Shown here: positions 12,148 to 58,649 of the stretch, one piece after another
Layout of the letters: the number at the start of each line of letters is the position of its first letter
Numbering within the stretch: position 1 is the first letter of the stretch
From: Bacteroidota bacterium
GTDB taxonomy: Bacteria; Bacteroidota; Bacteroidia; Flavobacteriales; BACL11
NCBI GenBank assembly: GCA_036141595.1
Contig: JAYZXD010000040.1
Span: 3,552-67,551 of the forward strand
Direction: 5' to 3'
Length of the DNA stretch: 64,000 nt
Made by a program: the position numbers and the translations under genes
The notes under the pieces: generated by a model
Database searches by the model: none
What the model was told of the DNA's origin: nothing
Seen by the model: only the letters and a program-made list of their open reading frames with translations

Positions 12148-12852
12148 TTATTTTACAAGGGTACCAACATTATCTCCTTTACAAACCTTATAAAGATTGC
12201 TTTTAGGTTTCATATTAAATACTCTAATTGGTAATTTGTTTTCTTGACAAAGTGTAAATGCGGTTAAATCCATAACATTCAATTTTTTTTTAATTACTTC
12301 ATCAAAGTTAATTTCATTAAACATTTTAGCATGTATATCTTTTTCTGGATCAGCAGAGTAAATCCCATCCACTCTAGTGCCTTTTAAAATTATATCTGCT
12401 TCAATTTCTATTGCGCGTAATACACCAGCAGTATCTGTTGTAAAATACGGATTTCCTGTTCCACCTCCAAAAATTACAACTCTTGATTTTTGTAAATGAC
12501 GCATTGCTTTTCTTCTAATATAGGGTTCTGCAACTTGCTCCATTCTGATAGCTGTTAATAATCTAGTCTGTATATCTAAAGATTCTAATGCAGATTGTAA
12601 AGCCATTCCATTAATGATTGTTGCTAGCATACCCATATGATCTCCTTGTACCCTGTCAAATCCAGCTCCTTCTGACTGTACTCCTCTATAAATATTTCCT
12701 CCACCTATTACGATTGCAACCTCAACTCCTTTATCAACTATAGTACTTATTTCATTAGCAAAATGACTTAAAATATTAGAATCTATTCCATATCCTGAAT
12801 CACCCATTAATGATTCACCGCTAAGTTTTAAAAGTATTCTTTTATATTTCAT
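12148..12852 (-). CDS. pyrH: UMP kinase
   Basis: [28 protein letters not shown]; ATG 12852 preferred, TATCTTTG box at 12865-12872. Confidence 0.97.
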
Positions 12853-12906
12853 AATAAAACTTTCCAAAGATAAAATAAATGAACCAAACTAATAAAATTA
12901 AAACAT

Positions 12907-12932
12907 AAAAAAACCACCTTAAAAAGGTGGTT
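12907..12932 (-). terminator. Rho-independent terminator after tsf
   Basis: Minus strand AACCACCT-TTTTA-AGGTGGTT hairpin running into a U7 tract. Confidence 0.8.
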
Positions 12933-12952
12933 AATTACTAAAAAAGATGAAA

Positions 12953-13921
12953 TTATCCAAGTGAGACTTTTTTAAAGTCAGAAATAGCAATCTGATCGCC
13001 ATAACTTAATATATATTCTGCAACATTCTTAGTTTCATCTTTAATAAATTTTTGATCTAACAAACACATTTCTTGATCTAATGTTGTATTGTCAGAAATA
13101 AATCTATCCATTTTACCTGGCACAATTTTATCCCAAATATGTTCAGGTTTTCCTTGATTTTTTAATTCTTCTTCTATAGTAGCTTTTGCTTTGTCTAGAA
13201 CCTCTTGTGTCAGCTGAGCTTTAGAAATAAATTGTGGTACATTTTTTAGAGTTTTGCCCAGTCTTTTTAACTCAATATTATCTTTTTCTATAGCCGCTAT
13301 TCTAGCTTCTGTTTCGGCATCAATAAATGATGAGTCTAAGTCCTTGTAAGATAGAGTAGTAGCCCCCATAGAAGCAACCTGCATAGAAATATCTTTGGAT
13401 AAAATCTCAGCGTTTTCAAAAACATTATTTATACCTACCAATACAGCAATCTTACTTCCATGTGTGTAAGAACCAACATATTTTGCCTCAAGTTTCTCAA
13501 AAGCAGAGATTTCAAGTTTTTCTCCTATAACTCCTGTTTGCTCAATTAATTTTTCAGCTACCGTCATATTTCCATAATTAGCTGCTAAGAAATCTTCTTT
13601 GTTATCAAAATTTAGAGCTATTTCAACAAAAGATTCAGCTAAAGATTTATACGAGTCATTTTTAGCAACGAAATCAGTTTCGCAAGCTAAAACAATAGCG
13701 ACTCCAGAAGTTTTATTATCATTGATTTTTACTATTGCAACACCTTCTTTTGCATCGCGATCAGCTCGCTTTGCTGCAACTTTTTGTCCTTTTTTTCTTA
13801 AAACATCAATTGCTGCATCAAAATCACCACTAGCTTCAATCAAAGCTTTTTTACAATCCATCATGCCAGCACCAGTTTGTTTTCTTAGCTTCGCTACGTC
13901 AGCTGCTTTAATACTTGTCAT
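12953..13921 (-). CDS. tsf: Elongation factor Ts (long form)
   Basis: LRKQTGAGMMDCKKAL, CETDFVAKN. Confidence 0.97.
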   Translation of the reverse strand: MTSIKAADVAKLRKQTGAGMMDCKKALIEASGDFDAAIDVLRKKGQKVAAKRADRDAKEGVAIVKINDNKTSGVAIVLACETDFVAKNDSYKSLAESFVEIALNFDNKEDFLAANYGNMTVAEKLIEQTGVIGEKLEISAFEKLEAKYVGSYTHGSKIAVLVGINNVFENAEILSKDISMQVASMGATTLSYKDLDSSFIDAETEARIAAIEKDNIELKRLGKTLKNVPQFISKAQLTQEVLDKAKATIEEELKNQGKPEHIWDKIVPGKMDRFISDNTTLDQEMCLLDQKFIKDETKNVAEYILSYGDQIAISDFKKVSLG

Positions 13922-13936
13922 ATCTTTTTGTTTAAA

Positions 13937-14692
13937 TTATATATTTTCTTCTGATATCTTTTTTGCTTTTTCTTTCTTCTCTTTATCCTTTGCAGCTTGC
14001 TCCAAACCTCTTTCATCTAAACCCTCCATAATTGCTTTTTTTATTATTGACAGAATGCAAACTATGGATTTTGATGCATCATCATTTGATGGTATAGGAA
14101 AATCTATAAGCTTAGGATTAGTATTTGTATCCGTCATAGCGAATGAACGAATACCCAAGTGATTAGCCTCTGAAACTGCAATACGTTCTTTATTAATATC
14201 TACAACAAAAATTGCTTCAGGCATTCGATTCATTTTTACAATACTACCTAAATTTAATTCAAGTTTTGCTCTTTGTCTATCAATCTGCAGTCTTTCTCTT
14301 TTGGATAACGTTGCAAATGTGCCGTCTTCCTTCATCTTATCAATTGTTTGCATCTTTTTAATTGATTTTCTTATAGTCGAAAAGTTTGTTAACAAACCTC
14401 CTGGCCACCTTTCAGTTATATATGGCATATTAAGAGATAAGGCTGTTTCTGATACAATAGACTTGGCTTGTTTTTTTGTTGCAACAAATAAAATTTTTTT
14501 TCCAGATTTTGCAATTTGTTTCAATGCAGCTGCTGCATCTTCAATCATTGCGACAGTTTTGTTTAAATCAATTATATGTATACCATTTCTTTCCATAAAT
14601 ACATATGGAGCCATTGCAGGATTATACTTTTTCTTTAGATGTCCAAAATGGACGCCTGATTCTAATAATTCTTTGAAATTTGTTCTTGACAT
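13937..14692 (-). CDS. rpsB: 30S ribosomal protein S2
   Basis: GVHFGH, RWPGGLLTNF, DTNTNP, PIPSNDD. Confidence 0.97.
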   Translation of the reverse strand: MSRTNFKELLESGVHFGHLKKKYNPAMAPYVFMERNGIHIIDLNKTVAMIEDAAAALKQIAKSGKKILFVATKKQAKSIVSETALSLNMPYITERWPGGLLTNFSTIRKSIKKMQTIDKMKEDGTFATLSKRERLQIDRQRAKLELNLGSIVKMNRMPEAIFVVDINKERIAVSEANHLGIRSFAMTDTNTNPKLIDFPIPSNDDASKSIVCILSIIKKAIMEGLDERGLEQAAKDKEKKEKAKKISEENI

Positions 14693-14769
14693 GTTTACTT
14701 TCTTTTTAAGTTAAGCAATTGCTTGGTAGAAGATTTAAAACTTGTCCAAGCAATTTAGATGCTAAACAT
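14691..14769 (-). promoter_or_regulatory. Structured rpsB leader (candidate ribosomal-protein leader)
   Basis: 10-bp perfect inverted repeat 14717-14726/14746-14755 plus outer 7-bp pairing 14763-14769/14691-14697 that includes the first two bases of the AUG. Confidence 0.5.
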
Positions 14770-14787
14770 TTGTTATTAATTTGATTT

Positions 14788-15174
14788 CTATCTTTTAACC
14801 CACTGGAACTTTTTTCTTGATTTTTTCTGCCCAGGTTTTTTACGCTCTACTACTCTAGCATCTCTTGTGAGTAAACCCTCAGATTTTAAAGAAGGTCTGT
14901 TATCAATATTTACTTCACATAATGCTCTTGAAATAGCTAAGCGAATTGCTTCAGATTGTCCTGTAGTACCTCCTCCGTTTACATTAACACTTACATCATA
15001 CTTGGCAAGGACGTCTAATAATTTAAATGGCTGCACTAATTTATATTGCATAGTATCCACTGGAAAATAATCTTTAAAATCTTTGCCATTTACCAAAATA
15101 TTTCCCTTACCTTTTGATAAATAAACTCTTGCTACAGCGGCCTTTCTTCTTCCTATTGCATGAATTGTATCCAT
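14788..15174 (-). CDS. rpsI: 30S ribosomal protein S9
   Basis: GRRKAAVARV, GGGTTGQ, LTRDARVVERKK. Confidence 0.98.
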   Translation of the reverse strand: MDTIHAIGRRKAAVARVYLSKGKGNILVNGKDFKDYFPVDTMQYKLVQPFKLLDVLAKYDVSVNVNGGGTTGQSEAIRLAISRALCEVNIDNRPSLKSEGLLTRDARVVERKKPGQKKSRKKFQWVKR

Positions 15175-15177
15175 ATT

Positions 15178-15633
15178 TTATTTTAAATCGTTTAAATTAA
15201 GTTTAGTAGGTTTTTGAGCATCATGATTATGCGTGTTTCCAGAATAAATATAACAGTTTCTTAAAATAGCAGCACCTAGCTTATTTTTTGGAAGCATACC
15301 TTTTACTGCATGCCTAACAACAGATGTTTCATCTTTGGCTAACATCTTGCTTGGTGTAATACGTTTTTGCCCACCAGGATAACCCGTATATGAAAATAGC
15401 TCTCGATTTGACATTTTTTTACCAGTCATAACTATTTTACCTGCATTAATTATTATAACATAATCTCCACAATCAGCATGAGGAGTATAATTTGTTTTAT
15501 ATTTTCCTCTAAGAACTTTTGCAACTTTAGAAGCCATTCTTCCTAATACTTGTCCATTAGCGTCAACAATGAACCATTTCTTGTCCGCATTCTCTTTGTT
15601 GGCTGATAATGTTTTATAACTTAATGTATCCAC
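15178..15633 (-). CDS. rplM: 50S ribosomal protein L13 (GTG start)
   Basis: WFIVDA, LGRMAS, YTPHADCGD, GMLPKN. Confidence 0.98.
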   Translation of the reverse strand: MDTLSYKTLSANKENADKKWFIVDANGQVLGRMASKVAKVLRGKYKTNYTPHADCGDYVIIINAGKIVMTGKKMSNRELFSYTGYPGGQKRITPSKMLAKDETSVVRHAVKGMLPKNKLGAAILRNCYIYSGNTHNHDAQKPTKLNLNDLK

Positions 15634-15661
15634 TACTTTATATTTATTTAATTAAGGGCTG

Positions 15662-15669
15662 CAAAATTA
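15662..15669 (-). promoter_or_regulatory. -7 promoter box (TAATTTTG) of the rplM-rpsI-rpsB-tsf operon
   Basis: TAnnTTTG followed by C, 28 nt upstream of the rplM start. Confidence 0.65.
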
Positions 15670-15709
15670 CACTTTTTTATTTTTCTGCAAAACTTTATTA
15701 TTTATTATT

Positions 15710-16897
15710 CTAAATTACATTTAAATTTTTACCAACCTTTACAAAAGCATTAACTGCTAAATCTAATTCTTTTCTAGAATGTGCTGCTGAAATTTGAACT
15801 CTTATACGTGCTAGATCTTTGGGAACTACAGGAAAGAAAAAGCCAATTACATAAATTCCTTCTTCAAGCAATTTATCTGCCATAATTTGAGATAGTTTTG
15901 CGTCATATAGCATTACAGGAACTATAGCATGTGAGCCTTTCTTGATATCAAAACCTGCTTCTATCATTTTATTTCGAAAGTAGCTTGTGTTTTCTTGCAG
16001 CCTATTTATCAAAGATTTATCATCACTTAATAAATCGATTACTTTAATCGCGGCTCCAACGATAGATGGTGCTAATGAATTAGAAAACAAATATGGACGA
16101 GACCTTTGTCTCAACATATCTATAATTTCTTTTTTTCCTGAAGTAAAACCTCCCATAGCTCCACCTAAGGCTTTACCTAAAGTTGATGTTATAATGTCTA
16201 CTCTACCCATCACATTACAATATTCGTGAGTTCCACGTCCATTTTTTCCCACAAATCCTGTAGCGTGACAATCATCAACCATAACAATCGCATCATATTT
16301 TTCAGCTAAATCACATATTTTATCTAGTTGCGCGATTGTTCCGTCCATAGAGAAAACACCATCAGTAACAATTAGCCTGTTTCTGTACTTTTGTGCGCTG
16401 GCTAATTGATGTTCTAAATCATTAATATTATTGTTCTCATATCTAAAACGAGCTGCTTTACATAAACGAACACCATCGATAATAGATGCATGGTTTAAAG
16501 AATCCGAAATAATTGCATCTTCCTTAGTTAAAAGTGGTTCAAATATACCTCCATTTGCATCAAAAGCTGCAGCATACAATATAGTATCCTCCATACCTAA
16601 AAATTTTGAAATTTTTTGTTCTAAATTCTTATGAATATCTTGTGTACCACATATAAAACGAACTGAAGACATCCCAAATCCATGAGTATCTAAGGTATCT
16701 TTAGCTGCCTTAACAACTTCTGGATGAGAAGATAATCCTAAATAATTATTAGCACAAAAATTCAATACTTTTTGTCCACTACTAACACGAATACTTGATC
16801 CTTGTGGAGAAGAAATTATTCTTTCTTTTTTGAATAATCCTGCATCTCTAATTTTTGTTAACTCTTTTTGTATTTGTTCATTAAATTTTACTAGCAT
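15710..16897 (-). CDS. kbl: Glycine C-acetyltransferase (2-amino-3-ketobutyrate CoA ligase)
   Basis: [41 protein letters not shown]. Confidence 0.96.
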
Positions 16898-48673: not shown

Positions 48674-50809
48674 TTAATTTATAACTACTTTTTTTATCAC
48701 AATACCCTCTTCAGAAAAGATCTTCAAAAAGTAAATACCTTGATTATCAATATCAATTGGAAAAGAATTATATCTAGCTAAATACTTACCACTAGCATCA
48801 AATAAACGAATAGAATATATTTCTATATCATTTAAAATATCTATACTTCTAGTTGAAGGATTAGGAAACACATCTATTTTTAAGTTTATTAAATTGCCTG
48901 TAGTATTTATATTACTTAACTCAGACCACCTTTTTTCAAATTCTTGTAAATAAATATTTGCAATAGTTGCGTCATAAATAATTAATGTGTTTTCATCAGA
49001 ATTATTTTCTGCATTGTTACTCCAATTGTGAGAGCCAGTAATTAAAATTGGTTCTGAAGCAGTAACATTTGCGTCAGCTATTGCATATTTATGATGAAAA
49101 GAATTTGGCACTCCAGTATGGGATCGCATATTTACTCCATTAGTTTGTAAGTTAGCAAATTCACTACCTGTGGAGTTTTCATCTTCAATAATACCCCTAA
49201 TGCTTATTCCAAACTCATTATTTTTATCTATAATAGTTTGTGCTAAATCGTCCCTAGTGAAACTTAATAAACCAAACTCAAAAGAATAGTCAACTGATTG
49301 AATAACTTTATTTATTTGAGATGTCGTTTGATCTGAGGGAGAAAAATATAATTCTATATGCTTGCCAGCAACATTAAATTTATGAGGAGTATTGTCACTT
49401 TTTTGACTTCCAAAATTTCCTGCCCACATCTCTTCAAACTCTAAAGTATAAGCTTTAGCTAAGGCTTGATCTTGAATAAAAATAATATTGTTGTAATCAT
49501 TAAATAAATTAGATGGATTAGACCAATTAGTAGACCCACCCATTATCCATGAATTATTAGTAGAATTTGCATCTATAATAATAAACTTATTGTGCATAAT
49601 GCCTGGAAGACTAGAATTTCTGTAAACGACAGGAATATTAGGATGTAAATTTGATAACATAGAGTTAACAACATCATCATCTGCAATATATCTAACTGAG
49701 ACGCCTCTGTTATAAGCATCATTAATTGCATTTGCAATTGTTCCATCTGATGCATTATACACACAAATATCCAAACTTGTTTGCGCAAGGTCCATGTAAG
49801 CCTTTATAGTATCATTAAAATATGTTGTTATGTTTTGTGCATCTGTACCTGTAGAAAAAGAATTATCTACTGAATGATTAAAGTAGGGGCGGATAGCCCC
49901 AGTAGAATTAGAAGCAGTAGAAAATAATCCAACAGAGGAGAAAGCTGTATCATTTCCATTAATAGAAAAACATTCTACATAATAAAAAGTAGCAGGTGTA
50001 AGACCTGTTAAGCTTACTGTATGCATCATATTGCTACCTCCATTGTTAACTATAGTGCCTAAAGCTGAAGATGTACCGTAATTATAATTTGCTGAAGAAG
50101 AATCAGATACAGTCCACGACAAATCGAAACCTGTAGTAGTAATATTGGTTTGCTCAACCGCTGAGGTAAACAACAGTGCTCCTGAAGAAATAATATCTGA
50201 GCTATCTCGAGGCAGAATTTGATAGCCATCATTGGCAGGAACAATAAATGTATATTGAGATGATATACCAATTAATGTTACTGGCCCTATAGGTATCATT
50301 GAATTTTCAAGTGGACTTCCTGACTTTATATACACTTTTCCTTGTTGTCCGCCAGAGTTAAAATCATGCGTACCAACAGTAAAAATAGAACCTCCATTAT
50401 TAAAAATTGTATTATTAATTTGTACCAATTCAGCCTCAGTGTCTTCTCCAATCATTGCAGGGGTTACTGATTGTGGTACTGGAAGAGGGTTGTTTGAAGA
50501 ATGAATAATTGGGCTTCCTGCAACATAAACCTCAAGCAATCCATTATAATCAGCTAGCTCTCCAGTGATTGATATACTGTCTCCTCTTAAAACATTTGAC
50601 AAATAGTTATTTGTGGTCAAGTCGTATAATGCTATTCCCGCTGTACCATCTTCAATATATCTAATTATACCCATTTCGTCACCATTTGTTACAATACCTG
50701 TGATTGTAACTGTTGAACCTAACACTTGAGTTCTTGCAGTTGCAATATCTTGTTGCGCAAATGTTATAAATGAAGTAAATGCCAAAATTATTAGTAGTGT
50801 TCTTTTCAT
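48674..50809 (-). CDS. Secreted multidomain protein: OB-fold pair + Fn3 + two PLD (HKD) domains + T9SS CTD; putative nuclease or phospholipase
   Basis: IATAR...VTITGIVT...YIEDGTAGI...GD.I.ITG.L..YNGLLE and GYQILPRD (YhcR/DUF5689-like OB folds); HTVSLTGLTPATFYY (Fn3); HNKFIIID..GSTNWS and HHKYAIAD..GSHNWS; CTD VFPNPS...GIYFLKI. Confidence 0.8.
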   Translation of the reverse strand: MKRTLLIILAFTSFITFAQQDIATARTQVLGSTVTITGIVTNGDEMGIIRYIEDGTAGIALYDLTTNNYLSNVLRGDSISITGELADYNGLLEVYVAGSPIIHSSNNPLPVPQSVTPAMIGEDTEAELVQINNTIFNNGGSIFTVGTHDFNSGGQQGKVYIKSGSPLENSMIPIGPVTLIGISSQYTFIVPANDGYQILPRDSSDIISSGALLFTSAVEQTNITTTGFDLSWTVSDSSSANYNYGTSSALGTIVNNGGSNMMHTVSLTGLTPATFYYVECFSINGNDTAFSSVGLFSTASNSTGAIRPYFNHSVDNSFSTGTDAQNITTYFNDTIKAYMDLAQTSLDICVYNASDGTIANAINDAYNRGVSVRYIADDDVVNSMLSNLHPNIPVVYRNSSLPGIMHNKFIIIDANSTNNSWIMGGSTNWSNPSNLFNDYNNIIFIQDQALAKAYTLEFEEMWAGNFGSQKSDNTPHKFNVAGKHIELYFSPSDQTTSQINKVIQSVDYSFEFGLLSFTRDDLAQTIIDKNNEFGISIRGIIEDENSTGSEFANLQTNGVNMRSHTGVPNSFHHKYAIADANVTASEPILITGSHNWSNNAENNSDENTLIIYDATIANIYLQEFEKRWSELSNINTTGNLINLKIDVFPNPSTRSIDILNDIEIYSIRLFDASGKYLARYNSFPIDIDNQGIYFLKIFSEEGIVIKKVVIN

Positions 50810-50832
50810 ATCAATTGTTTAATTAAAAAATA

Positions 50833-53637
50833 TTAAAATATAAATCTTGCTGACAAAGTATACCTTCGGCCTAATCCAAAAAAGACTCCGGCAGATTTAG
50901 CATCAAAATCTTGATAATTTGAATTATATGGATCATTATTTTGAGAATCAGATATATATCTCTCATTAAATAAGTTTAATATACTTAATTTTAAATCTAG
51001 CTTATTGTTGTCCCATAACTTGAATTTGTATCCTGCATGTAAATCAATTAAGTTATATGAAGGTATTTTCCAACTTTGTCTTCCTGCATTTACTCCGTTC
51101 AACGATAATGGATCAAAATCAGAAAAATATCTTGAAAAATTAGTCCCTCTTATTTTTATGTAGGTGTTAGTGTTTGGTTCATATCTCAAACTAAATCCTT
51201 GTTGCGTTTGAGCTGCATCACCCACATGAACACCATCTGCATCAAAAGTCGCAACTATTTCATTTCCAAAATCGTCAGTAATTGGATTATTGTTGTCGTC
51301 CGTAAATCTAACTGTATCCGAAGATGCCCATTTCCAATTTCCAAATGAAACTAATGCTTCTAATGTAAGTTTTTGAGTTAATCTAATTGCCAAATCAAGC
51401 TCAGCTCCCTTATGTAATGCATCCATACCATTAATATTAGCCCTATATGGAATATCATCTACCAAGACTGTAACACCTCCATTAGATGGCTTATTTTCCC
51501 ACTGTGTATAATAAACATTAAAGTTAGAGGAATATTTAGAGGACCTGAAAGAATGACCCCATTCAAAAGCTTTAACTATTTCATTTTTTATATCTCTAAA
51601 CAAAGTATTATCGTAATAATATACGTTATTAAATCTTGGAGCTTTTGAGATATATCCAACATTAAAAAATATATTATTGTTTTCATCAACATTTAAATTT
51701 GCTCCTGTCTTTAAAGTATAGCCTCTAATCCATTTCCAATCTGTTTCAGCATTTTTTGCCTCTTTGGAATTCATTGTATAGGCAACACCATTATGAATAA
51801 TAGTGTCCTCTACCATTTCTTTTGTAGCTCCAGTTAAATTGCCATTTTCATCATATGTCGGCTGGGTCATAACAGATGTTCCCAAAGCTTCATAATATGT
51901 AGTGTCTGCTAAAACTAAATCCTTCTTTTTAAAATAATCTATTCTCTTATATGCAGAATTTGAAGCAGAAATATTAAAGAATGTACTTAGCATGCCATTA
52001 CTGTACTCAGCTTGAGAAAAAACTCCACTCCATTTAACTATTCCATCATTGTGATAACCAACCTTATCTCCCTCTCTTTTAATTTCTGAATCCTGGAGTC
52101 CATTTGCTCCATCGAGGGCATAATCTGCACCTAACAAATCATAAACTTCTCTATAATGCTCTCCTCTATAATACCTCATATCTACGCCTCCAGAAAGATT
52201 AATTTCATCACTTACTTGAAAATTTAAAGTTGATAATCCCCCATACCAGTAATGATTATTTATTGAACTCCTCAGATAGGTTCCTGCTTTATTTTCGTTG
52301 AGAGAATAAAGTCCGTCAATATTATTTTTATTTGCATTATATGCCTCTTGAAGATTATACTGACCTTCATCATCATAATTATTTGTATTGCCACTTAAAC
52401 CTGTTCCTCCACCATTACCTAATGAAACATATAAAATATTAGATAGATAAAATTTTTCAGAAGCAGTCCAAAAATGTCGTAATGAAAATTGAGGTTTATG
52501 ATAATAATTTTGTTTGGTATTTAGCCTACTTCTGTCATGTATTGTGTCTCCATTTATGTTTACACTCCACCGATCTAAATATCCCCAATGTTTATTATAT
52601 TGAATTCCTTTATTTACAATTCTATTTGTAAAATCTGATGTGTCACCCAAAGCTCTAGCAAAAGTGGTATCATAGGTCGCTATGTCACTTTTATAAGATC
52701 TTTGTCCATGCTTTTGCGGAGCACCCATAGCTGATAGACTTAAAACATGCTTGCCTAGTTGCTTTTGAACCTTTAGGTAATAAAAATATCCCTGAGTCCA
52801 TGTCTCATCAACAAACCCCATGCCATTTTTATACGAACCGGCAAGTGTGTATCCCCAATCACCTTTCAACTTACCTGAATTATAACCAATTGAGGTTGTT
52901 GTTCTTCCAAAACTTCCAACTGATTGCTTAATAACACCAGAAGATTTATTTCCTGTGCCTTTTGTTAAAATATTCATTGTCCCTCCAACAGATGGAATGG
53001 CAATTTTCGAAGCTCCTAACCCTCTTTGTACCTGAATGTTAGATGTTACTGCATCTAAACCAAACCAATTACTCCAGTATACCCAGCCATTCTCCATATC
53101 ATTAACAGGTATTCCGTCAATCATTACAGCGACATTTCGTTGGTTGAATCCTCTAATTGTAATTCTTGCATCACCATCACCACCTCCACTTTGTGTAGCG
53201 TAAACTCCAGGTGTTGAGTTTAAAACCATTGGAATATCTTGAGAAGCTAACTCCTCACTTATTTTTTTCATAGGTATTGTTGAAAATGCAACTGGAGTCT
53301 TTCTTTCTCTAGCAACATCAGAAACAACTTGTACTTCATTTAATAGTTTGGTTTCTAATTTAAAGTTAATTATTTGAGGATCTTTAGAAATTAAAACTTT
53401 ACGATTTATTACTTTGTAACCGACATATGAAACTTGAATACTTCTTTCTCCTGGTTGAGTATAAAATAAGAAATTACCCTCAAAATCTGTCGCAGTTCCC
53501 AAACCCTTGCCAAAAACTATTGTAGCCCCTATTAGCGGCTCACCTGTATTTGCATCTGTAATTTTTCCACTTACAGCAACCTGGGAAAAGGAACTAAAAA
53601 AACTAAATAATAAAAAATAAAAAATAAGTTTTCTCAT
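50833..53637 (-). CDS. TonB-dependent receptor (not SusC-type, no SusD partner)
   Basis: Signal peptide, GKITDANTGEPLIGATI, plug IRGFNQRNVAVMIDGIPVNDMENGWVYWSNW, C-terminal Phe. Confidence 0.93.
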   Translation of the reverse strand: MRKLIFYFLLFSFFSSFSQVAVSGKITDANTGEPLIGATIVFGKGLGTATDFEGNFLFYTQPGERSIQVSYVGYKVINRKVLISKDPQIINFKLETKLLNEVQVVSDVARERKTPVAFSTIPMKKISEELASQDIPMVLNSTPGVYATQSGGGDGDARITIRGFNQRNVAVMIDGIPVNDMENGWVYWSNWFGLDAVTSNIQVQRGLGASKIAIPSVGGTMNILTKGTGNKSSGVIKQSVGSFGRTTTSIGYNSGKLKGDWGYTLAGSYKNGMGFVDETWTQGYFYYLKVQKQLGKHVLSLSAMGAPQKHGQRSYKSDIATYDTTFARALGDTSDFTNRIVNKGIQYNKHWGYLDRWSVNINGDTIHDRSRLNTKQNYYHKPQFSLRHFWTASEKFYLSNILYVSLGNGGGTGLSGNTNNYDDEGQYNLQEAYNANKNNIDGLYSLNENKAGTYLRSSINNHYWYGGLSTLNFQVSDEINLSGGVDMRYYRGEHYREVYDLLGADYALDGANGLQDSEIKREGDKVGYHNDGIVKWSGVFSQAEYSNGMLSTFFNISASNSAYKRIDYFKKKDLVLADTTYYEALGTSVMTQPTYDENGNLTGATKEMVEDTIIHNGVAYTMNSKEAKNAETDWKWIRGYTLKTGANLNVDENNNIFFNVGYISKAPRFNNVYYYDNTLFRDIKNEIVKAFEWGHSFRSSKYSSNFNVYYTQWENKPSNGGVTVLVDDIPYRANINGMDALHKGAELDLAIRLTQKLTLEALVSFGNWKWASSDTVRFTDDNNNPITDDFGNEIVATFDADGVHVGDAAQTQQGFSLRYEPNTNTYIKIRGTNFSRYFSDFDPLSLNGVNAGRQSWKIPSYNLIDLHAGYKFKLWDNNKLDLKLSILNLFNERYISDSQNNDPYNSNYQDFDAKSAGVFFGLGRRYTLSARFIF

Positions 53638-53646
53638 GAAAAAATC

Positions 53647-54564
53647 TTATTCAACAACTAACTTAGCTACAGAACTTTTACCATTCAAAAAACTAATGTG
53701 TACAATGTATACACCAGAGGATAGATCCTCTGTGTAAATTGTATTTTTAAAAGATAAATTCTTTCCAATTACATTTTTTAATGAAATTTCTTTAATCTCA
53801 AAATTCGAGTTTATTGTGACTTGAGAACCCTCACTAGCAGGGTTTGGGTAGAGAACAAAAGATGGTTCTGTTAAATTTTCTGATAAATTTGATGTACCAA
53901 AACAATCACAATTATGAGCTCCTAAGCTTGTGTATGTAGCGTCAGGTAAAGAATCATATTCTAAAGTAGGGTCAAATAAGATTGGATTTTGAGTAACGCC
54001 GTTTTGTACAGATGATTTTCTAATTAATGTTTGCCTTTTTGTCCACCAGGTCCCTCCGTTTGCGTCAGTGTATCCTGCGGAAATATCATCTGTCCATGCT
54101 GCACCAGGATCTTCTCCAACTTTACCAAAAATATCAATGATATTTCCGTTTTTCTCAATAGTCATAGCGTCGTCACCATTGAAATAAAATGTATTATTAG
54201 CACTGTAGTCTCCACTACAATGATCGTTCAATAAGGCAAAAAAAGCTGGATCTACAGGAAGAGACCAGTAGGTTGAAACCCAAACAGAATCTTGTTGCCC
54301 ATTACCAACCACTACAACATCTCCAGAATTAATCGTTCCTGAAAGCTGCCATACTTCTGGATTAGAACTTGATCCATTACCATATCTGTTAATTGTATAG
54401 TCGGATAAATCTATATCAAAACTTGTAGGATTATAAATTTCAATTGCATTGTTGTTGCCAGGTCCTTCGACATATTCAGAAATAAATAAATCTGAACACA
54501 TGGTGTTTTGAGCACTTAAGCTAAGAGTAAAAATCATTGATAACAAAAACAGATATTTTTTCAT
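53647..54564 (-). CDS. Lamin-tail-domain protein with T9SS CTD
   Basis: DLFISEYVEG..NNNAIEIYNPT..IDLSDY, FNGDDA, TLIRK; CTD LYPNPA...GVYIV..KLVVE. Confidence 0.85.
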   Translation of the reverse strand: MKKYLFLLSMIFTLSLSAQNTMCSDLFISEYVEGPGNNNAIEIYNPTSFDIDLSDYTINRYGNGSSSNPEVWQLSGTINSGDVVVVGNGQQDSVWVSTYWSLPVDPAFFALLNDHCSGDYSANNTFYFNGDDAMTIEKNGNIIDIFGKVGEDPGAAWTDDISAGYTDANGGTWWTKRQTLIRKSSVQNGVTQNPILFDPTLEYDSLPDATYTSLGAHNCDCFGTSNLSENLTEPSFVLYPNPASEGSQVTINSNFEIKEISLKNVIGKNLSFKNTIYTEDLSSGVYIVHISFLNGKSSVAKLVVE

Positions 54565-54577
54565 TTTTTTTTTTTTT
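54564..54577. repeat. T14 (A14 on the mRNA) run ending in the A of the LTD start codon
   Basis: Direct count; variant promoter box TAGTTTAG at 54589-54596 on the minus strand. Confidence 0.85.
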
Positions 54578-54659
54578 GATTTGTGCTGCTAAACTACAAA
54601 AAGTAAAATAGAAAATATTATCAAAATATTAAATATATTTGAAATTATATAAGACTGTA

Positions 54660-56581: not shown

Positions 56582-57313
56582 GTGTCAGATAGCTTAATCA
56601 TCATACCAACCTTTAATGAAAAAGAAAATATTGAGAGTATCATAAAAAAAGTATTTTCTCTAAAAAAGCAGTTTAACATACTAATTGTCGATGATAATTC
56701 TCTTGATGGCACAGCCAATATTGTTAAAACACTACAAAAAACATACCCTAAAAAATTATTCATAGAAGAACGAAGCAAAAAGTTAGGTCTAGGTACCGCT
56801 TATATTCATGGTTTTAAGTGGGCCCTTAAAAAAGACTATGAATTCATTTTTGAAATGGATGCAGATTTTTCACACAACCCCGATGATTTAATTAAGCTGT
56901 ATGATGTAGTAAAAAACAACAATGGAGATTTAGCTATTGGATCAAGATATGTGAAGGGGGTAAATATTGTTAATTGGCCCATGAGTAGATTGCTTTTATC
57001 TTTTTTTGCTTCAAAATATGTTAAAATAATAACTGGCATGCCAATTCATGACTCTACCGCAGGCTTTAAATGTTACAAAAAGAAAATTTTACAAACAATA
57101 GAACTTGATAAGATCCAATTTGTAGGTTATGCATTTCAAATTGAAATGAAGTTTAAAGCGTGGAAGTATGGCTTTAGAATCGTCGAGGTACCTGTGATTT
57201 TTACTGACAGAAAGGAAGGCGTATCTAAAATGTCAGGAGGAATATTTTTTGAAGCAGTGTTTGGTGTATTACAAATGAAGATAAAAAGTATATTTAAAAA
57301 CTGGAAAAAATAA
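56582..57313 (+). CDS. Polyprenol monophosphomannose synthase-like GT2
   Basis: IIPTFNEKENI, VDDNS.DGT, KLGLGTAY, EMDADFSH; GTG start. Confidence 0.9.
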   Translation: MSDSLIIIPTFNEKENIESIIKKVFSLKKQFNILIVDDNSLDGTANIVKTLQKTYPKKLFIEERSKKLGLGTAYIHGFKWALKKDYEFIFEMDADFSHNPDDLIKLYDVVKNNNGDLAIGSRYVKGVNIVNWPMSRLLLSFFASKYVKIITGMPIHDSTAGFKCYKKKILQTIELDKIQFVGYAFQIEMKFKAWKYGFRIVEVPVIFTDRKEGVSKMSGGIFFEAVFGVLQMKIKSIFKNWKK

Positions 57314-57314
57314 A

Positions 57315-58649
57315 ATGCAAATATTGATAAAAAATGCTTGCGTAGTAAATGAAAATAAAATTTTTTCTTATGATGTTCTTATACGAAATGAAAAAATTTA
57401 TAAAATTGCCAAAAATATTGATTCTTATGCTGAGAAAGTAATAGATGCAGATGGCTTATTTTTAATTCCTGGTGTTATTGATGATCAAGTTCATTTTAGA
57501 GAGCCAGGTTTAACACACAAAGCCACTATTGGTACTGAAAGTAGAGCTGCAATTGCAGGTGGCATTACGTCATTTATGGAAATGCCAAACACAAAACCCC
57601 AAGCTTTGACACAAAAGCTTTTAGAAGATAAATTTAAAATAGCATCAGAGAATTCTTTAGCAAACTTTTCATTTTTTATGGGTGCCAGTAACGACAATCT
57701 TGATGAAATACTAAAAACAAACCCAAAAAATGTAGGTGCTATAAAAATATTTATGGGTTCATCAACAGGAAACATGCTGGTAGATAATAAAAAAGTTTTA
57801 GAAGAAATTTTTTCTAAATCTAAAATGCCAATTGCTGTGCATTGTGAAGATGAAGAAACGATTCAGCATAATTTAAATATTGCAATAAAAAAATACGGAA
57901 AAAAAATCCCAATAGAAGAGCATCCAAAAATAAGAAGTGTTGAAGCGTGCTATAAATCAAGCAAACTAGCTGTTGATTTAGCAAAAAAACACAATACTCG
58001 TCTTCACATATTTCATGTTTCAACAGAAAAAGAATTAGAGTTGTTTGAGAATAATAATGACTTAATTAATAAAAAAATAACGTCAGAAGTGTGTATTCAC
58101 CACTTGTATTTTGATGAAAAAGATTATAAATCAAAAGGGAATTTAATAAAGTGGAACCCTTCAGTAAAAAAATCTAGTGATCGTAAAGCTTTATTTCGCG
58201 CATTACTAAATGACAAAATAGACGTTATTGCTACCGATCATGCTCCTCACACTTTAGAAGAAAAAAATAAAAATTATTTAGACGCTCCATCTGGGGGGCC
58301 ACTAGTTCAACATGCTCTTAATGTCATGCTTGATTTTTATCACAAAGGTGAAATCTCTTTAGAAAAGATTGTAGAAAAAATGTGTCATAACCCTGCAATT
58401 TGTTTCAGTATTGAAAAAAGAGGGTTTATAAAAGAAGGGTACTATGCAGACCTAGTTCTATTAGATTTGAACAAATCTTGGCAAGTAAGTAAAAATAACA
58501 TTCTTTATAAATGTAAATGGTCTCCGTTTGAGGGCAAAATTTTTAATAGTAAAGTAACTCATACAATAGTAAACGGAAATATCGTTTATGAAAACGGTAT
58601 TTTTAATGAAAATAAAAAAGGAATGCGTCTAATGTTTGACAGGTCATAG
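57315..58649 (+). CDS. pyrC: Dihydroorotase
   Basis: DDQVHFREPG, EMPNT, KIFMGSSTG, KWNP, IATDHAPH. Confidence 0.92.
   Translation: MQILIKNACVVNENKIFSYDVLIRNEKIYKIAKNIDSYAEKVIDADGLFLIPGVIDDQVHFREPGLTHKATIGTESRAAIAGGITSFMEMPNTKPQALTQKLLEDKFKIASENSLANFSFFMGASNDNLDEILKTNPKNVGAIKIFMGSSTGNMLVDNKKVLEEIFSKSKMPIAVHCEDEETIQHNLNIAIKKYGKKIPIEEHPKIRSVEACYKSSKLAVDLAKKHNTRLHIFHVSTEKELELFENNNDLINKKITSEVCIHHLYFDEKDYKSKGNLIKWNPSVKKSSDRKALFRALLNDKIDVIATDHAPHTLEEKNKNYLDAPSGGPLVQHALNVMLDFYHKGEISLEKIVEKMCHNPAICFSIEKRGFIKEGYYADLVLLDLNKSWQVSKNNILYKCKWSPFEGKIFNSKVTHTIVNGNIVYENGIFNENKKGMRLMFDRS

Follow-up and report, generated by a model that had tools for sequence, protein, structure and literature searches.

A three-gene surface locus in a marine flavobacterium, probably for the use of extracellular nucleic acid

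Organisation of the operon

The window, a 64,000-nucleotide stretch of DNA from a Bacteroidota genome that is 76% complete, carries three adjoining genes on the minus strand, the strand of all features described below. They occupy 53647-54564 (305 aa), 50833-53637 (934 aa) and 48674-50809 (711 aa), and encode, in this order, a secreted lamin-tail-domain (LTD) protein, a TonB-dependent receptor and a phospholipase D-like (PLD) protein, here called genes 1, 2 and 3. As a sequence-only reading had it, the genes are co-oriented and closely spaced, with gaps of 9 nt (LTD/receptor) and 23 nt (receptor/PLD gene), and the open reading frame coordinates agree. The neighbouring genes lie on the opposite strand, accB/accC convergent and an acetyl-CoA synthetase gene divergent; the trio is therefore a discrete unit. 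No SusD gene occurs among the trio or its neighbours, and within the operon there is no gene for a periplasmic nuclease, a regulator or an inner-membrane transporter.

The promoter-like box that the same reading placed before the operon stands in part. A conserved box, TTTGTAGTTTAGC (54588..54600), ends 24 nt before the LTD start codon. Of 19 relatives inspected, 8 have it unchanged (as TTTGTAnnTTAGC) upstream of their LTD gene and 2 have it with a single mismatch, and the relatives that share it are all among the nearest. With one mismatch, it resembles the consensus of the -7 promoter element, TAnnTTTG. The exact Bacteroidetes-type pattern, TTTG-N17-23-TAnnTTTG, was not found upstream of the operon; the box is not enriched across the whole window (4 matches against 3.5 expected), and a sigma-70 scan gave 33 matches against 34.2 in shuffles, with no excess. 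A run of 13 A (54565..54577) directly precedes the ATG of the LTD gene, and A-rich leaders are seen in the upstream regions of relatives too; such a run may have a role in translation start in Bacteroidota.

A secreted lamin-tail-domain protein

By Pfam and NCBIfam matches, gene 1 (53647..54564) encodes a surface protein with an LTD domain at residues 24–148 (54121..54495; PF00932, 57 bits, cut-off 34.3), together with a type A C-terminal sorting domain (CTD) of the T9SS (type IX secretion system) at residues 238–304 (53653..53853; TIGR04183, 34.1 bits, cut-off 23). In the AlphaFold2 model (pLDDT 89.2), the LTD domain superposes with the Ig fold of lamin A/C (1ifr; Foldseek probability 1.00, TMt 0.61) and with lamin B1 (7dtg; Z 8.2). 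An Ig-like fold and a Pfam score above the gathering threshold together place it in the lamin tail domain family. The fold of the CTD matches those of T9SS substrates (8glj, Z 9.5; 8glk, Z 9.2). The LTD domain matches the NCBIfam ExeM model in its N-terminal part only (positions 11–140; E 2.1e-19). We rejected an assignment of gene 1 to the ExeM/NucH nucleases (NF033680/NF033681), for which it scored 69 bits against a cut-off of 1300, with no full-length match.

The best structural match to the body of the protein (residues 2–219) is BT_1938 (4q1z; Z 10.4, rmsd 4.8, 177 residues aligned), which lies outside Foldseek's first 50 matches. DUF4876 proteins are putative lids of non-SusC TonB transporters, as in BT_1938/BT1939 (Price et al., bioRxiv 10.1101/2023.03.17.533168), and BT_1938, like gene 1, is encoded next to a non-SusC receptor. 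BT_1938 is, however, a lipoprotein, whereas gene 1 has a T9SS tail, and the two show no sequence match. DUF4876 gave no Pfam match to gene 1 at E<=1, and membership in that family was rejected, the resemblance being structural only (Z 10.4).

A non-SusC TonB-dependent receptor

Profile matches identify gene 2 (50833..53637; 934 aa) as an outer-membrane receptor with a carboxypeptidase-regulatory-like domain (CarbopepD_reg_2) at residues 22–104 (53326..53574; PF13715, 62.7 bits) and a Plug domain at residues 111–219 (52981..53307; PF07715, 57.5 bits). No SusC/RagA model is listed among its NCBIfam matches at E<=0.1; with neither such a model nor a SusD gene, a SusC/SusD-type polysaccharide-utilisation locus was rejected. 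Within the Plug domain lies a block of conserved columns, NGWVYWSNW (residues 183–191; 53065-53091), invariant from N183 to W191 in 58 aligned relatives except at V186 (90% or more). A paralogous receptor with the same YWSNW block adjoins ribonucleotide reductase, so the motif itself is no marker of DNA transport.

A candidate secreted nuclease

Gene 3 (48674..50809; 711 aa) combines DUF5689, a fibronectin type III (Fn3) domain, tandem Nuc-like PLD halves and a CTD. The DUF5689 domain, which is OB/HIN-like and predicted to bind DNA, covers residues 27–206 (50192..50731; PF18942, 38.4 bits, cut-off 28.6). It was found when the N-terminus was scanned alone, a whole-protein scan having missed it, and a genome-wide search also placed it (contig coordinates 53743-54282). 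Of the tandem N-terminal OB folds that had been read from the letters, the first is supported by an AlphaFold2 model of residues 1–315 (pLDDT 88.7), in which residues 17–107 match the OB fold of RPA (3e0e; Z 11.8, rmsd 2.1, 83 aligned) and p204 HIN-dsDNA (5z7d; Z 11.4); a putative second barrel spans about residues 108–209. Foldseek on the N-terminus ranked p204 HINab-dsDNA second and IFI16 HINa seventh. In a control search, DUF5689 also had a match in B. subtilis, perhaps to YhcR. The Fn3 domain (residues 210–303; 49901..50182) was assigned by its resemblance to many Fn3 domains (VIA-align Z about 11), and the Pfam models fn3 and Pur_ac_phosph_N match below cut-off.

PLDc_2 matched twice. The first PLD-like half (residues 336–462; 49424..49804; PF13091) matches Zucchini (4h4a/4gen, E about 1e-8), and the second (about residues 485–632; 48914..49357) matches MitoPLD/Zucchini (9lkx, 2.7e-15; 4ggj, 1.6e-12) and Nuc (1byr, 1.8e-7). 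HKD motif 1 (residues 406–413; 49571-49594) and HKD motif 2 (residues 572–579; 49073-49096) are intact and fit HxK(x)4D(x)6G(S)xN, two per active site; residues H406, K408, D413, G425 and N428 of the first and H572, K574, D579, G592 and N595 of the second are invariant in 46/46 relatives. A T9SS type A sorting domain follows at residues 647–710 (48680..48871; TIGR04183, 33.5 bits, cut-off 23; PF18962, 28.1 bits). The sequence-only reading had thus been sound in its account of the three proteins: gene 1 encodes a stand-alone LTD protein that ends in a T9SS tail, gene 2 a TonB receptor outside the SusC family, and gene 3 a T9SS protein with OB-like and Fn3 domains and two intact HKD motifs.

The PLD superfamily includes lipases among its members. 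By sequence, the PLD part of gene 3 is closer to the nuclease members: all seven PLD-family PDB sequences that match it are Zucchini/MitoPLD or Nuc, and the only NCBIfam enzyme models that match are those of NucT, far below their equivalog cut-offs (63.7 bits against 297). Zucchini/MitoPLD proteins are known as single-strand nucleases. Gene 3 shares the HKD chemistry of the Nuc/NucT/Zucchini branch, and its halves each align to a monomer of these nucleases, which are dimers with one HKD motif per chain. Unlike them, it fuses both halves in one chain, set in a 711-aa surface protein with predicted DNA-binding, Fn3 and T9SS modules. We therefore call gene 3 a predicted secreted nuclease, by homology.

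Conservation of the locus and exchange of the nuclease

Of the 68 genomes of the window's family, 59 gave a match to the LTD gene, 57 to the receptor and 54 to the PLD gene; as read from coordinates, 39 have all three on one contig in the order LTD-receptor-PLD. Nearly all good genomes of this family of marine flavobacteria, which measure 1–2 Mb, retain the operon. Six family genomes that were inspected for want of a PLD match carry instead a 713-aa ORF in the same position, which in 4/4 scanned comprises Endonuclease_1, Fn3 and a T9SS tail.

With the receptor, we found 80 loci across Flavobacteriales, Bacteroidales, Saprospiraceae, Marinilabiliales and others. In 74 of the 78 loci with room for it, the gene directly upstream of the receptor is an LTD gene (76/78 discounting two spurious small ORFs), and in 65 of the 67 with room the gene directly downstream encodes a nuclease (66/67 with locus L092). 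The 65 downstream nucleases comprise 45 with DUF5689 and PLD, 15 with Endonuclease I and DUF5689, 4 with Endonuclease I and another N-terminus, and 1 fragment. The three-gene linkage is thus conserved both in the family and across Bacteroidota. Extended loci encode T9SS proteins that unite LTD and DUF5689 in one chain (L052, L077, L113, L114), and DUF5017+DUF5689 proteins also occur (L052, L113). Nuclease type (PLD or Endonuclease I) changes 10 times on a FastTree phylogeny of 73 receptors, at least 7 of these changes being forced by well-supported branches. These repeated swaps at one position point to a shared substrate that is nucleic acid, not lipid. Roughly a fifth of an even sample of the class Bacteroidia (about 33 of 151 genomes) has a receptor of this type, taken as a full-length match of at least 42% identity.

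The source genome encodes the T9SS translocon protein SprA (contig C23) which, with their sorting domains, places the products of genes 1 and 3 among T9SS type A cargo. It also encodes a 5'-nucleotidase C domain, a CNT nucleoside transporter and a PafA/NPP-type phosphodiesterase. Short pieces of all three genes, at least 99% alike, occur in contigs from two marine metatranscriptome runs, a weak signal in which DNA carry-over is possible.

Comparison with known systems

The sequence-only reading knew of no characterised system with this architecture, but a characterised relative exists. The ddbABCDEF locus of B. thetaiotaomicron (Sharan et al., PNAS 2025; PMC12478041) encodes a non-SusC TonB transporter, DdbC, a DUF5689 partner, DdbD, and secreted nucleases. 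DdbD was modelled as a DNA-binding partner, a predicted lid, of DdbC, and DNA depletion requires the locus (PMC12478041). Both systems are PUL-like sets of secreted nucleases (in our case by homology only) and a non-SusC transporter with a carboxypeptidase-regulatory-like N-terminus; in both, a DUF5689 module (PF18942, above cut-off here) is encoded directly after the transporter gene, and SusD is absent. The present locus differs in that DUF5689 forms the N-terminus of the nuclease and is no separate lipoprotein; that its surface proteins have T9SS tails, not lipoprotein signals; that its nuclease is PLD-type (Endonuclease I in relatives); and that an LTD protein is always encoded upstream. 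The words 'lamin' and 'LTD' are absent from the main text of PMC12478041. Many Bacteroidales versions of the present locus have an Exo_endo_phos_3 gene nearby, and such a gene also adjoins canonical TonB receptor and DUF5689 pairs.

Homologues of DdbC were defined in that study by more than 50% identity and more than 75% coverage to Bt1, Bt2, Pv1 or Pv2 (PMC12478041). By eye, its Pv-type DdbC queries (Dataset S4) share the YWSNW plug block with gene 2, and 48 of 76 residues are identical between gene 2 and Pv2, as counted by eye on the printed sequence. Gene 2 shares 19-24% identity with the receptors that adjoin stand-alone DUF5689 genes in 8 genomes (DdbCD-like pairs of the canonical kind), and its best match in genomes with such pairs is another, stand-alone receptor (32-33%) beside a phosphoglucose isomerase gene. 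By this comparison, therefore, homology of the gene 2 transporter to DdbC appears not to be specific.

A related pair is known from Riemerella anatipestifer, where RA0C_RS04915 and RA0C_RS04920 are essential for transformation (PMC8459023). As that source describes them, these too comprise an outer-membrane barrel with a carboxypeptidase-regulatory domain and a DUF5689 protein. The present locus differs in having no ComEC link, a DUF5689 fused to a nuclease, an LTD partner and a receptor of another subfamily. In ExeM/NucH and YhcR, LTD and OB-type modules likewise accompany a secreted nuclease; here, the modules are split over two proteins flanking a transporter, and the catalytic domain is PLD, not Exo_endo_phos.

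Proposed function and alternatives

We conclude that the locus is probably a three-gene outer-surface module for the use of extracellular nucleic acid, most likely a widespread variant of the DNA-utilisation system described in gut Bacteroides in 2025. The earlier suggestion of a PUL-like locus for nucleic acid is well supported by DUF5689, the nuclease-like PLD, the linkage and the replacement by Endonuclease I. We infer the steps of its mechanism from sequence. Both flanking proteins would be exported by the T9SS and stay on or near the cell surface, where the LTD protein and the tandem OB/HIN-like DUF5689 domain would hold DNA or RNA. The tandem Nuc-like PLD of gene 3 would act as a pseudo-dimer, with one active site from two HKD motifs, and cut the polymer to oligonucleotides. 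The receptor would then take these into the periplasm, with the LTD protein, the DUF5689 domain or both as an extracellular substrate-delivery partner. Phosphatases, nucleotidases and a nucleoside transporter encoded elsewhere could finish the process, yielding phosphorus, nitrogen and nucleosides for a small, streamlined marine flavobacterium.

The LTD protein may take the place of SusD. On the precedent of Ddb, the DUF5689 domain of the nuclease would be an equally good candidate for the receptor's partner. In favour of the LTD protein are its near-universal position directly upstream of the receptor, even where the nuclease has no detectable DUF5689, and its structural resemblance to the putative DUF4876 lid BT_1938. 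We also entertain, tentatively and at less than even chances, a farther-reaching proposal: that the trio is a distinct, phylum-wide third type of DNA utilisation. The extracellular lid of the TonB-dependent transporter would then be an LTD protein anchored by the T9SS instead of a lipoprotein, the DNA clamp of the DdbD type would have been transferred to a nuclease that can be exchanged, and the whole would be the main route of uptake of dissolved DNA or RNA in planktonic marine Bacteroidota.

Three alternatives to nucleic acid use were weighed. The nuclease could serve a purpose other than feeding, such as remodelling extracellular-DNA matrices or escaping DNA traps, and the linkage of the receptor would then reflect regulation or something unrelated. 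Nucleases secreted by the T9SS are known, among them NucA, whose CTD is in 8glk, and a ddbF-type nuclease of B. thetaiotaomicron has been tied to bile-dependent biofilm formation (PMC8851478, as cited in PMC12478041). We nevertheless think this improbable: the linkage holds across orders at the counts given above (nuclease 66/67, LTD 76/78), the operon persists in planktonic organisms whose 1-2 Mb genomes retain little non-essential DNA, and nucleoside uptake and nucleotidase genes are present in the genome.

Natural transformation, in which the receptor and its DNA-binding partner would pass intact DNA through the outer membrane, to be imported by way of ComEC and recombined, seems slightly less probable still. 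RA0C_RS04920, a member of the DUF5689 family, is essential for transformation together with the adjoining RA0C_RS04915 (PMC8459023), and the Riemerella locus also has an adjoining nuclease (PMC12478041). Here, however, one chain joins the DNA binder to a nuclease whose catalytic motifs are intact, and the receptor shares only 19-24% identity with the receptors of DdbCD/Riemerella-type pairs. ComEC (PF03772) was found in 10 of 21 high-quality family genomes (10 of 25 searched), and gave no match in about half of the good genomes with the operon, which argues against transformation; it was not found in the source genome (76% complete), in the 98%-complete same-genus genome G041, which keeps the operon, or in G019, G023, G033, G049 and G060, all with the operon.

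The least probable reading, and a very unlikely one, is that the PLD protein acts as a lipase, or on phosphodiesters in general, and releases phosphate or head groups, products that the receptor would import: the superfamily includes phospholipases, the closest PDB entries were deposited as 'mitochondrial cardiolipin hydrolase' and the Fn3 region weakly matches the purple acid phosphatase N-terminal domain, but those entries are Zucchini/MitoPLD, known as single-strand nucleases, bacterial Nuc matches too, the N-terminus of gene 3 is the OB/HIN-like DUF5689, and the many same-position exchanges for Endonuclease I genes are sensible only if the shared substrate is nucleic acid.

Significance

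Dissolved DNA and RNA are large marine pools of phosphorus and nitrogen, and we know of no described machinery for their uptake in abundant planktonic Bacteroidota. If the locus is used for extracellular nucleic acid as we propose, the 2025 concept of a gut DNA-utilisation locus would extend to T9SS-bearing environmental Bacteroidota, the bacterial lamin-tail domain would gain a concrete role, and a TonB transporter would be served by T9SS-anchored partners. The repeated swaps between PLD and Endonuclease I on a fixed LTD-receptor backbone constitute a clean natural experiment that defines the substrate.

Operon organisation and genomic context

The locus comprises three minus-strand open reading frames: gene 1 (53647–54564), encoding a 305-residue lamin tail domain (LTD) protein, gene 2 (50833–53637), encoding a 934-residue TonB-dependent receptor, P0002, and gene 3 (48674–50809), encoding a 711-residue PLD protein. 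With intergenic gaps of 9 nt between genes 1 and 2 and 23 nt between genes 2 and 3, the co-oriented, tightly spaced arrangement described in the sequence-only reading was borne out. The flanking genes, accB/accC, fabH and plsX on one side and acetyl-CoA synthetase on the other, all lie on the plus strand, marking the trio as a separate unit. Near the operon, at 56582–58649 of the window, are GT2 glycosyltransferase and amidohydrolase genes, which also occur in distant Bacteroidales loci (for example at 12650–16356 of locus L022), where they are followed by genes for a MORN-repeat protein and for Exo_endo_phos_3. This neighbourhood looks like an old synteny around the trio.

The host assembly, G000, spans 1.29 Mb in 41 contigs, is 76% complete and has roughly 30% G+C; among named relatives the nearest is a metagenome-assembled marine 'Flavobacteriales bacterium' with 93% receptor identity. 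The type IX secretion (T9SS) translocon SprA is encoded in G000. Gene 1 matches the Pfam lamin tail domain at 57 bits (cut-off 34.3) and carries a type A T9SS sorting domain. Gene 2 has a carboxypeptidase-regulatory-like N-domain and a plug, and no SusC/RagA model matched it.

A homopolymer of 13 A residues (54565–54577, minus strand) directly precedes the LTD start codon. The corresponding leaders of relatives are A-rich and shorter than 13 A, and length variation of the run could alter expression. Upstream of gene 1, the proposed promoter-like box, TTTGTAGTTTAGC, is kept in the nearest relatives; it is an inexact fit to the generally known Bacteroidetes promoter pattern, and scans for the exact pattern, for sigma-70 sites and for terminators did not exceed chance where the operon starts. 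In contigs from two marine metatranscriptome runs (X1 and X2), short pieces of all three genes were at least 99% alike to the window; the 13-A stretch was skipped as a repeat in this mapping. These pieces may come from DNA carry-over rather than RNA. The pieces are short and none bridged two of the genes, so we make no statement on a single transcript; uncovered parts carry no meaning.

Domain architecture of the gene 3 protein

In the whole gene 3 protein Pfam recognises a pair of PLD-like halves, a stretch resembling Fn3 and a T9SS tail, and DUF5689 is unlisted at E ≤ 0.1 when all 711 residues are scanned with hmmscan. Scanning residues 1–215 alone (window 50165–50809) brought residues 27–206 above the gathering cut-off as DUF5689, with 38.4 bits (cut-off 28.6; E = 1.6e-9). 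A genome-wide search of G000 returned this site as the sole DUF5689 match. We modelled residues 1–315 with AlphaFold2 from an alignment of 44 relatives (pLDDT 88.7, pTM 0.70). Modelled residues 17–107 superpose on the OB fold of RPA (3e0e; Z 11.8, rmsd 2.1, 83 aligned) and on the HIN domain of p204 bound to double-stranded DNA (5z7d; Z 11.4, rmsd 2.3, 89 aligned), while residues 210–303 superpose on Fn3 domains with Z of about 11. Foldseek ranked the p204 HINab–dsDNA complex second and IFI16 HINa seventh for the same model. The tandem OB-fold-like domains proposed earlier thus appear right in substance: the OB matches fall on residues 17–107, and the model predicts a second barrel at about residues 108–209. 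A stretch 58% identical to gene 3 residues 18–253 occurs in a 1886-residue protein (L008:1096–6756, on contig C1 of G064, a genome of the window's family) with Pfam matches to BD-FAE, Omp28 and BNR_2, and the DUF5689-Fn3 module is therefore found in other large surface proteins too.

The catalytic part has two intact HKD motifs, as previously claimed, HNKFIIID...GSTN at residue 406 and HHKYAIAD...GSHN at residue 572, whose H, K, D, G and N residues are invariant in all 46 aligned relatives. The seven PLD-family matches in the PDB comprise only Zucchini/MitoPLD entries, the best at 2.7e-15, and Salmonella Nuc at 1.8e-7; every one pairs with a single half of gene 3. Both Zucchini and Nuc are nucleases; the Zucchini/MitoPLD entries are deposited under the name 'mitochondrial cardiolipin hydrolase'. 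The only NCBIfam enzyme models to match gene 3 are those of NucT, under their cut-offs.

Conservation of the trio and exchange of its nuclease

To place the operon in its family, we surveyed 68 genomes, 21 of high quality. The LTD protein is present in 59 genomes (21/21 of high quality), the receptor in 57 (20/21; E ≤ 1e-100) and the PLD protein in 54 (20/21; E ≤ 1e-5, a few being tail-only matches). Coordinates read by hand place LTD, receptor and PLD genes in this order on a single contig in 39/68 genomes; in the remainder the trio is mostly broken by contig ends. Eight genomes have the LTD and receptor genes with no PLD match. In all six of these examined (G061 and G020 were left out), the third place holds an open reading frame of 713 residues, which in the four scanned consists of Endonuclease_1, Fn3 and a T9SS tail. 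In two genomes, G051 (contigs C6 and C9) and G056 (C62 and C85), the complete trio occurs twice, which may reflect duplication or strain mixture, and in-frame stops interrupt the receptor or LTD gene in three others (G057:C4:325560–328250, G030:C12:6001–8505 and G031:C2:19133–20033).

Across the phylum, with one genome per species scanned, we found 583 receptor relatives and surveyed the loci of the best 80, whose labels include Flavobacteriales, Bacteroidales, Saprospiraceae, Marinilabiliales, Lentimicrobiaceae, Prolixibacteraceae and Rikenellaceae. Among these 80, a script placed an LTD gene directly upstream of the receptor in 74 of the 78 loci with room for one, or 76/78 once a spurious small ORF in L052 and L091 is discounted; the genuine exceptions are L021 and L080. 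A nuclease gene lies directly downstream in 65 of the 67 loci with room, and in 66/67 when a spurious ORF preceding the PLD gene of L092 is set aside; L080 has no nuclease there. The three-gene linkage is thus kept in relatives, as the sequence-only reading requires, at both phylum and family level. Pfam scans of representative loci agree with the scripted architectures.

The downstream nuclease itself varies. The 65 loci comprise 45 DUF5689+PLD, 15 Endonuclease I+DUF5689 and 4 Endonuclease I proteins with another N-terminus, plus 1 fragment. Rooted with three stand-alone paralogues, a FastTree phylogeny of 73 receptors shows ten changes of nuclease type, and starred branches force at least seven changes of the PLD label; support values are purely local, and relatives are not independent of one another. 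The N-terminus of the class C Endonuclease I proteins aligned with the DUF5689 profile (hhalign) only across signal peptides, and gave weak Pfam matches to F5/8-type-C and an NCBIfam match to choice-of-anchor D under the cut-off.

An even sample of the class Bacteroidia gave a receptor match at E ≤ 1e-90 in 51 of 149 good genomes, and full-length matches of at least 42% identity in about 33 of 151, read by hand; DUF5689 matches lie just downstream of the receptor in G173, G165 and G169. Some extended loci add upstream T9SS proteins, namely LTD + Big_2 + DUF5689 or DUF5017 + DUF5689 fusions (L113:6956–16000, L114:2–8790, L052:3–2921 and L077:3543–5840), and some, such as L090, add a second, Endonuclease I gene. 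RA0C_RS04920, a transformation protein of Riemerella, is reported to combine DUF5017 with DUF5689 (PMC8459023).

The LTD protein as a putative SusD substitute

The LTD gene almost always directly precedes the receptor, also where the nuclease has no detectable DUF5689. Its AlphaFold2 model (pLDDT 89.2) has its best structural match in BT_1938 (4q1z; Z 10.4, rmsd 4.8, 177 aligned), a DUF4876 protein proposed to be the lid of the non-SusC transporter BT1939 (Price et al., 10.1101/2023.03.17.533168). BT_1938 was missing from the first 50 Foldseek matches to the model, and we found no sequence relation between the two proteins. A complex prediction for receptor residues 112–934 and LTD protein residues 22–198, from 58-row alignments, scored 0.17 against a mark of 0.32, which counts neither for nor against the pairing. 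It is plausible that the LTD protein acts as a putative SusD substitute.

Relation to the ddb locus

The earlier statement that no characterised system resembles the trio is outdated. Sharan et al. describe ddbABCDEF of B. thetaiotaomicron, which encodes three nucleases together with DdbC, a TonB transporter, and DdbD, a DUF5689 protein that was modelled as a DNA-binding partner of DdbC and likened to the p202 HIN domain; DNA depletion requires the locus (PMC12478041). By this precedent, the DUF5689 domain of gene 3 would be a candidate partner of the receptor. The words 'lamin', 'LTD', 'T9SS', 'phospholipase D' and 'endonuclease' are absent from the main text of that paper. None of the literature searched described an LTD-receptor-PLD or T9SS version, and mentions of DUF5689 were confined to PMC12478041 and PMC8459023.

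P0002 may belong to the DdbC family; a comparison with receptors of DdbCD-like pairs gave no sign of specific kinship. In eight canonical, DdbCD-like pairs, in which a receptor gene is followed by a stand-alone DUF5689 gene of 445–478 or 696 residues, the receptors are only 19–24% identical to P0002 and rank no higher against it than other receptors of their own genomes. The best P0002 match in these genomes is a different receptor, 32–33% identical, which adjoins phosphoglucose isomerase and has no nuclease nearby. The Phocaeicola (Pv) DdbC types share with P0002 the YWSNW plug block and its neighbouring blocks, which the Bt types lack (Dataset S4, PMC12478041); counted by eye, 48 of 76 plug-core residues are identical between P0002 and Pv2. 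In the G321 family, a search for a Pv-type locus yielded nothing more than a YWSNW receptor of 30% identity adjoining ribonucleotide reductase, and the T9SS tails there indicate that this family is not Phocaeicola-like. A YWSNW paralogue of about 30% identity adjoins ribonucleotide reductase in the window's family and another family (L096:1–3767; L109–L112, for example L109:6863–14716), so the block cannot serve as a marker of DNA transport. Receptor paralogues of the window's own family (L095, L096) have no nuclease genes beside them. A DUF5689-PLD-T9SS gene is found on the opposite strand in L109 and L110, a few kb away from the paralogue; it is absent in L111 and L112.

Transformation or nucleic acid utilisation

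The ddb locus is related to Riemerella transformation genes (PMC12478041, PMC8459023), and the trio could by the same token serve transformation. Against this, ComEC (PF03772) was not found in the 76%-complete G000, occurs in 10 of 21 good family genomes compared with 20–21 of 21 for the operon, and has no match in the operon-bearing G041, which is of the same genus and 98% complete.

Genes for a 5'-nucleotidase C-domain protein, for a CNT-family nucleoside transporter and for a PafA/NPP-type phosphodiesterase lie elsewhere in G000; neither Endonuclease I nor Exo_endo_phos_3 (PF19580) was found in this 76%-complete assembly. Exo_endo_phos_3 genes do lie beside canonical pairs (L100:3276–4328, L102:12033–13076) and close to the trio in Bacteroidales (L022:15343–16356, a weak match to the ExeM/NucH DNase model), and in G041 one is located about 60 kb away from the operon, on the contig that carries it (C7:339512–340390).

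The comparative evidence strongly supports the prediction, already made in the sequence-only reading, that the substrate of the trio is nucleic acid. We rate the trio as a putative T9SS-coupled, LTD-associated DNA-utilisation module, in which the exchangeable nuclease would bear a DdbD-type domain.
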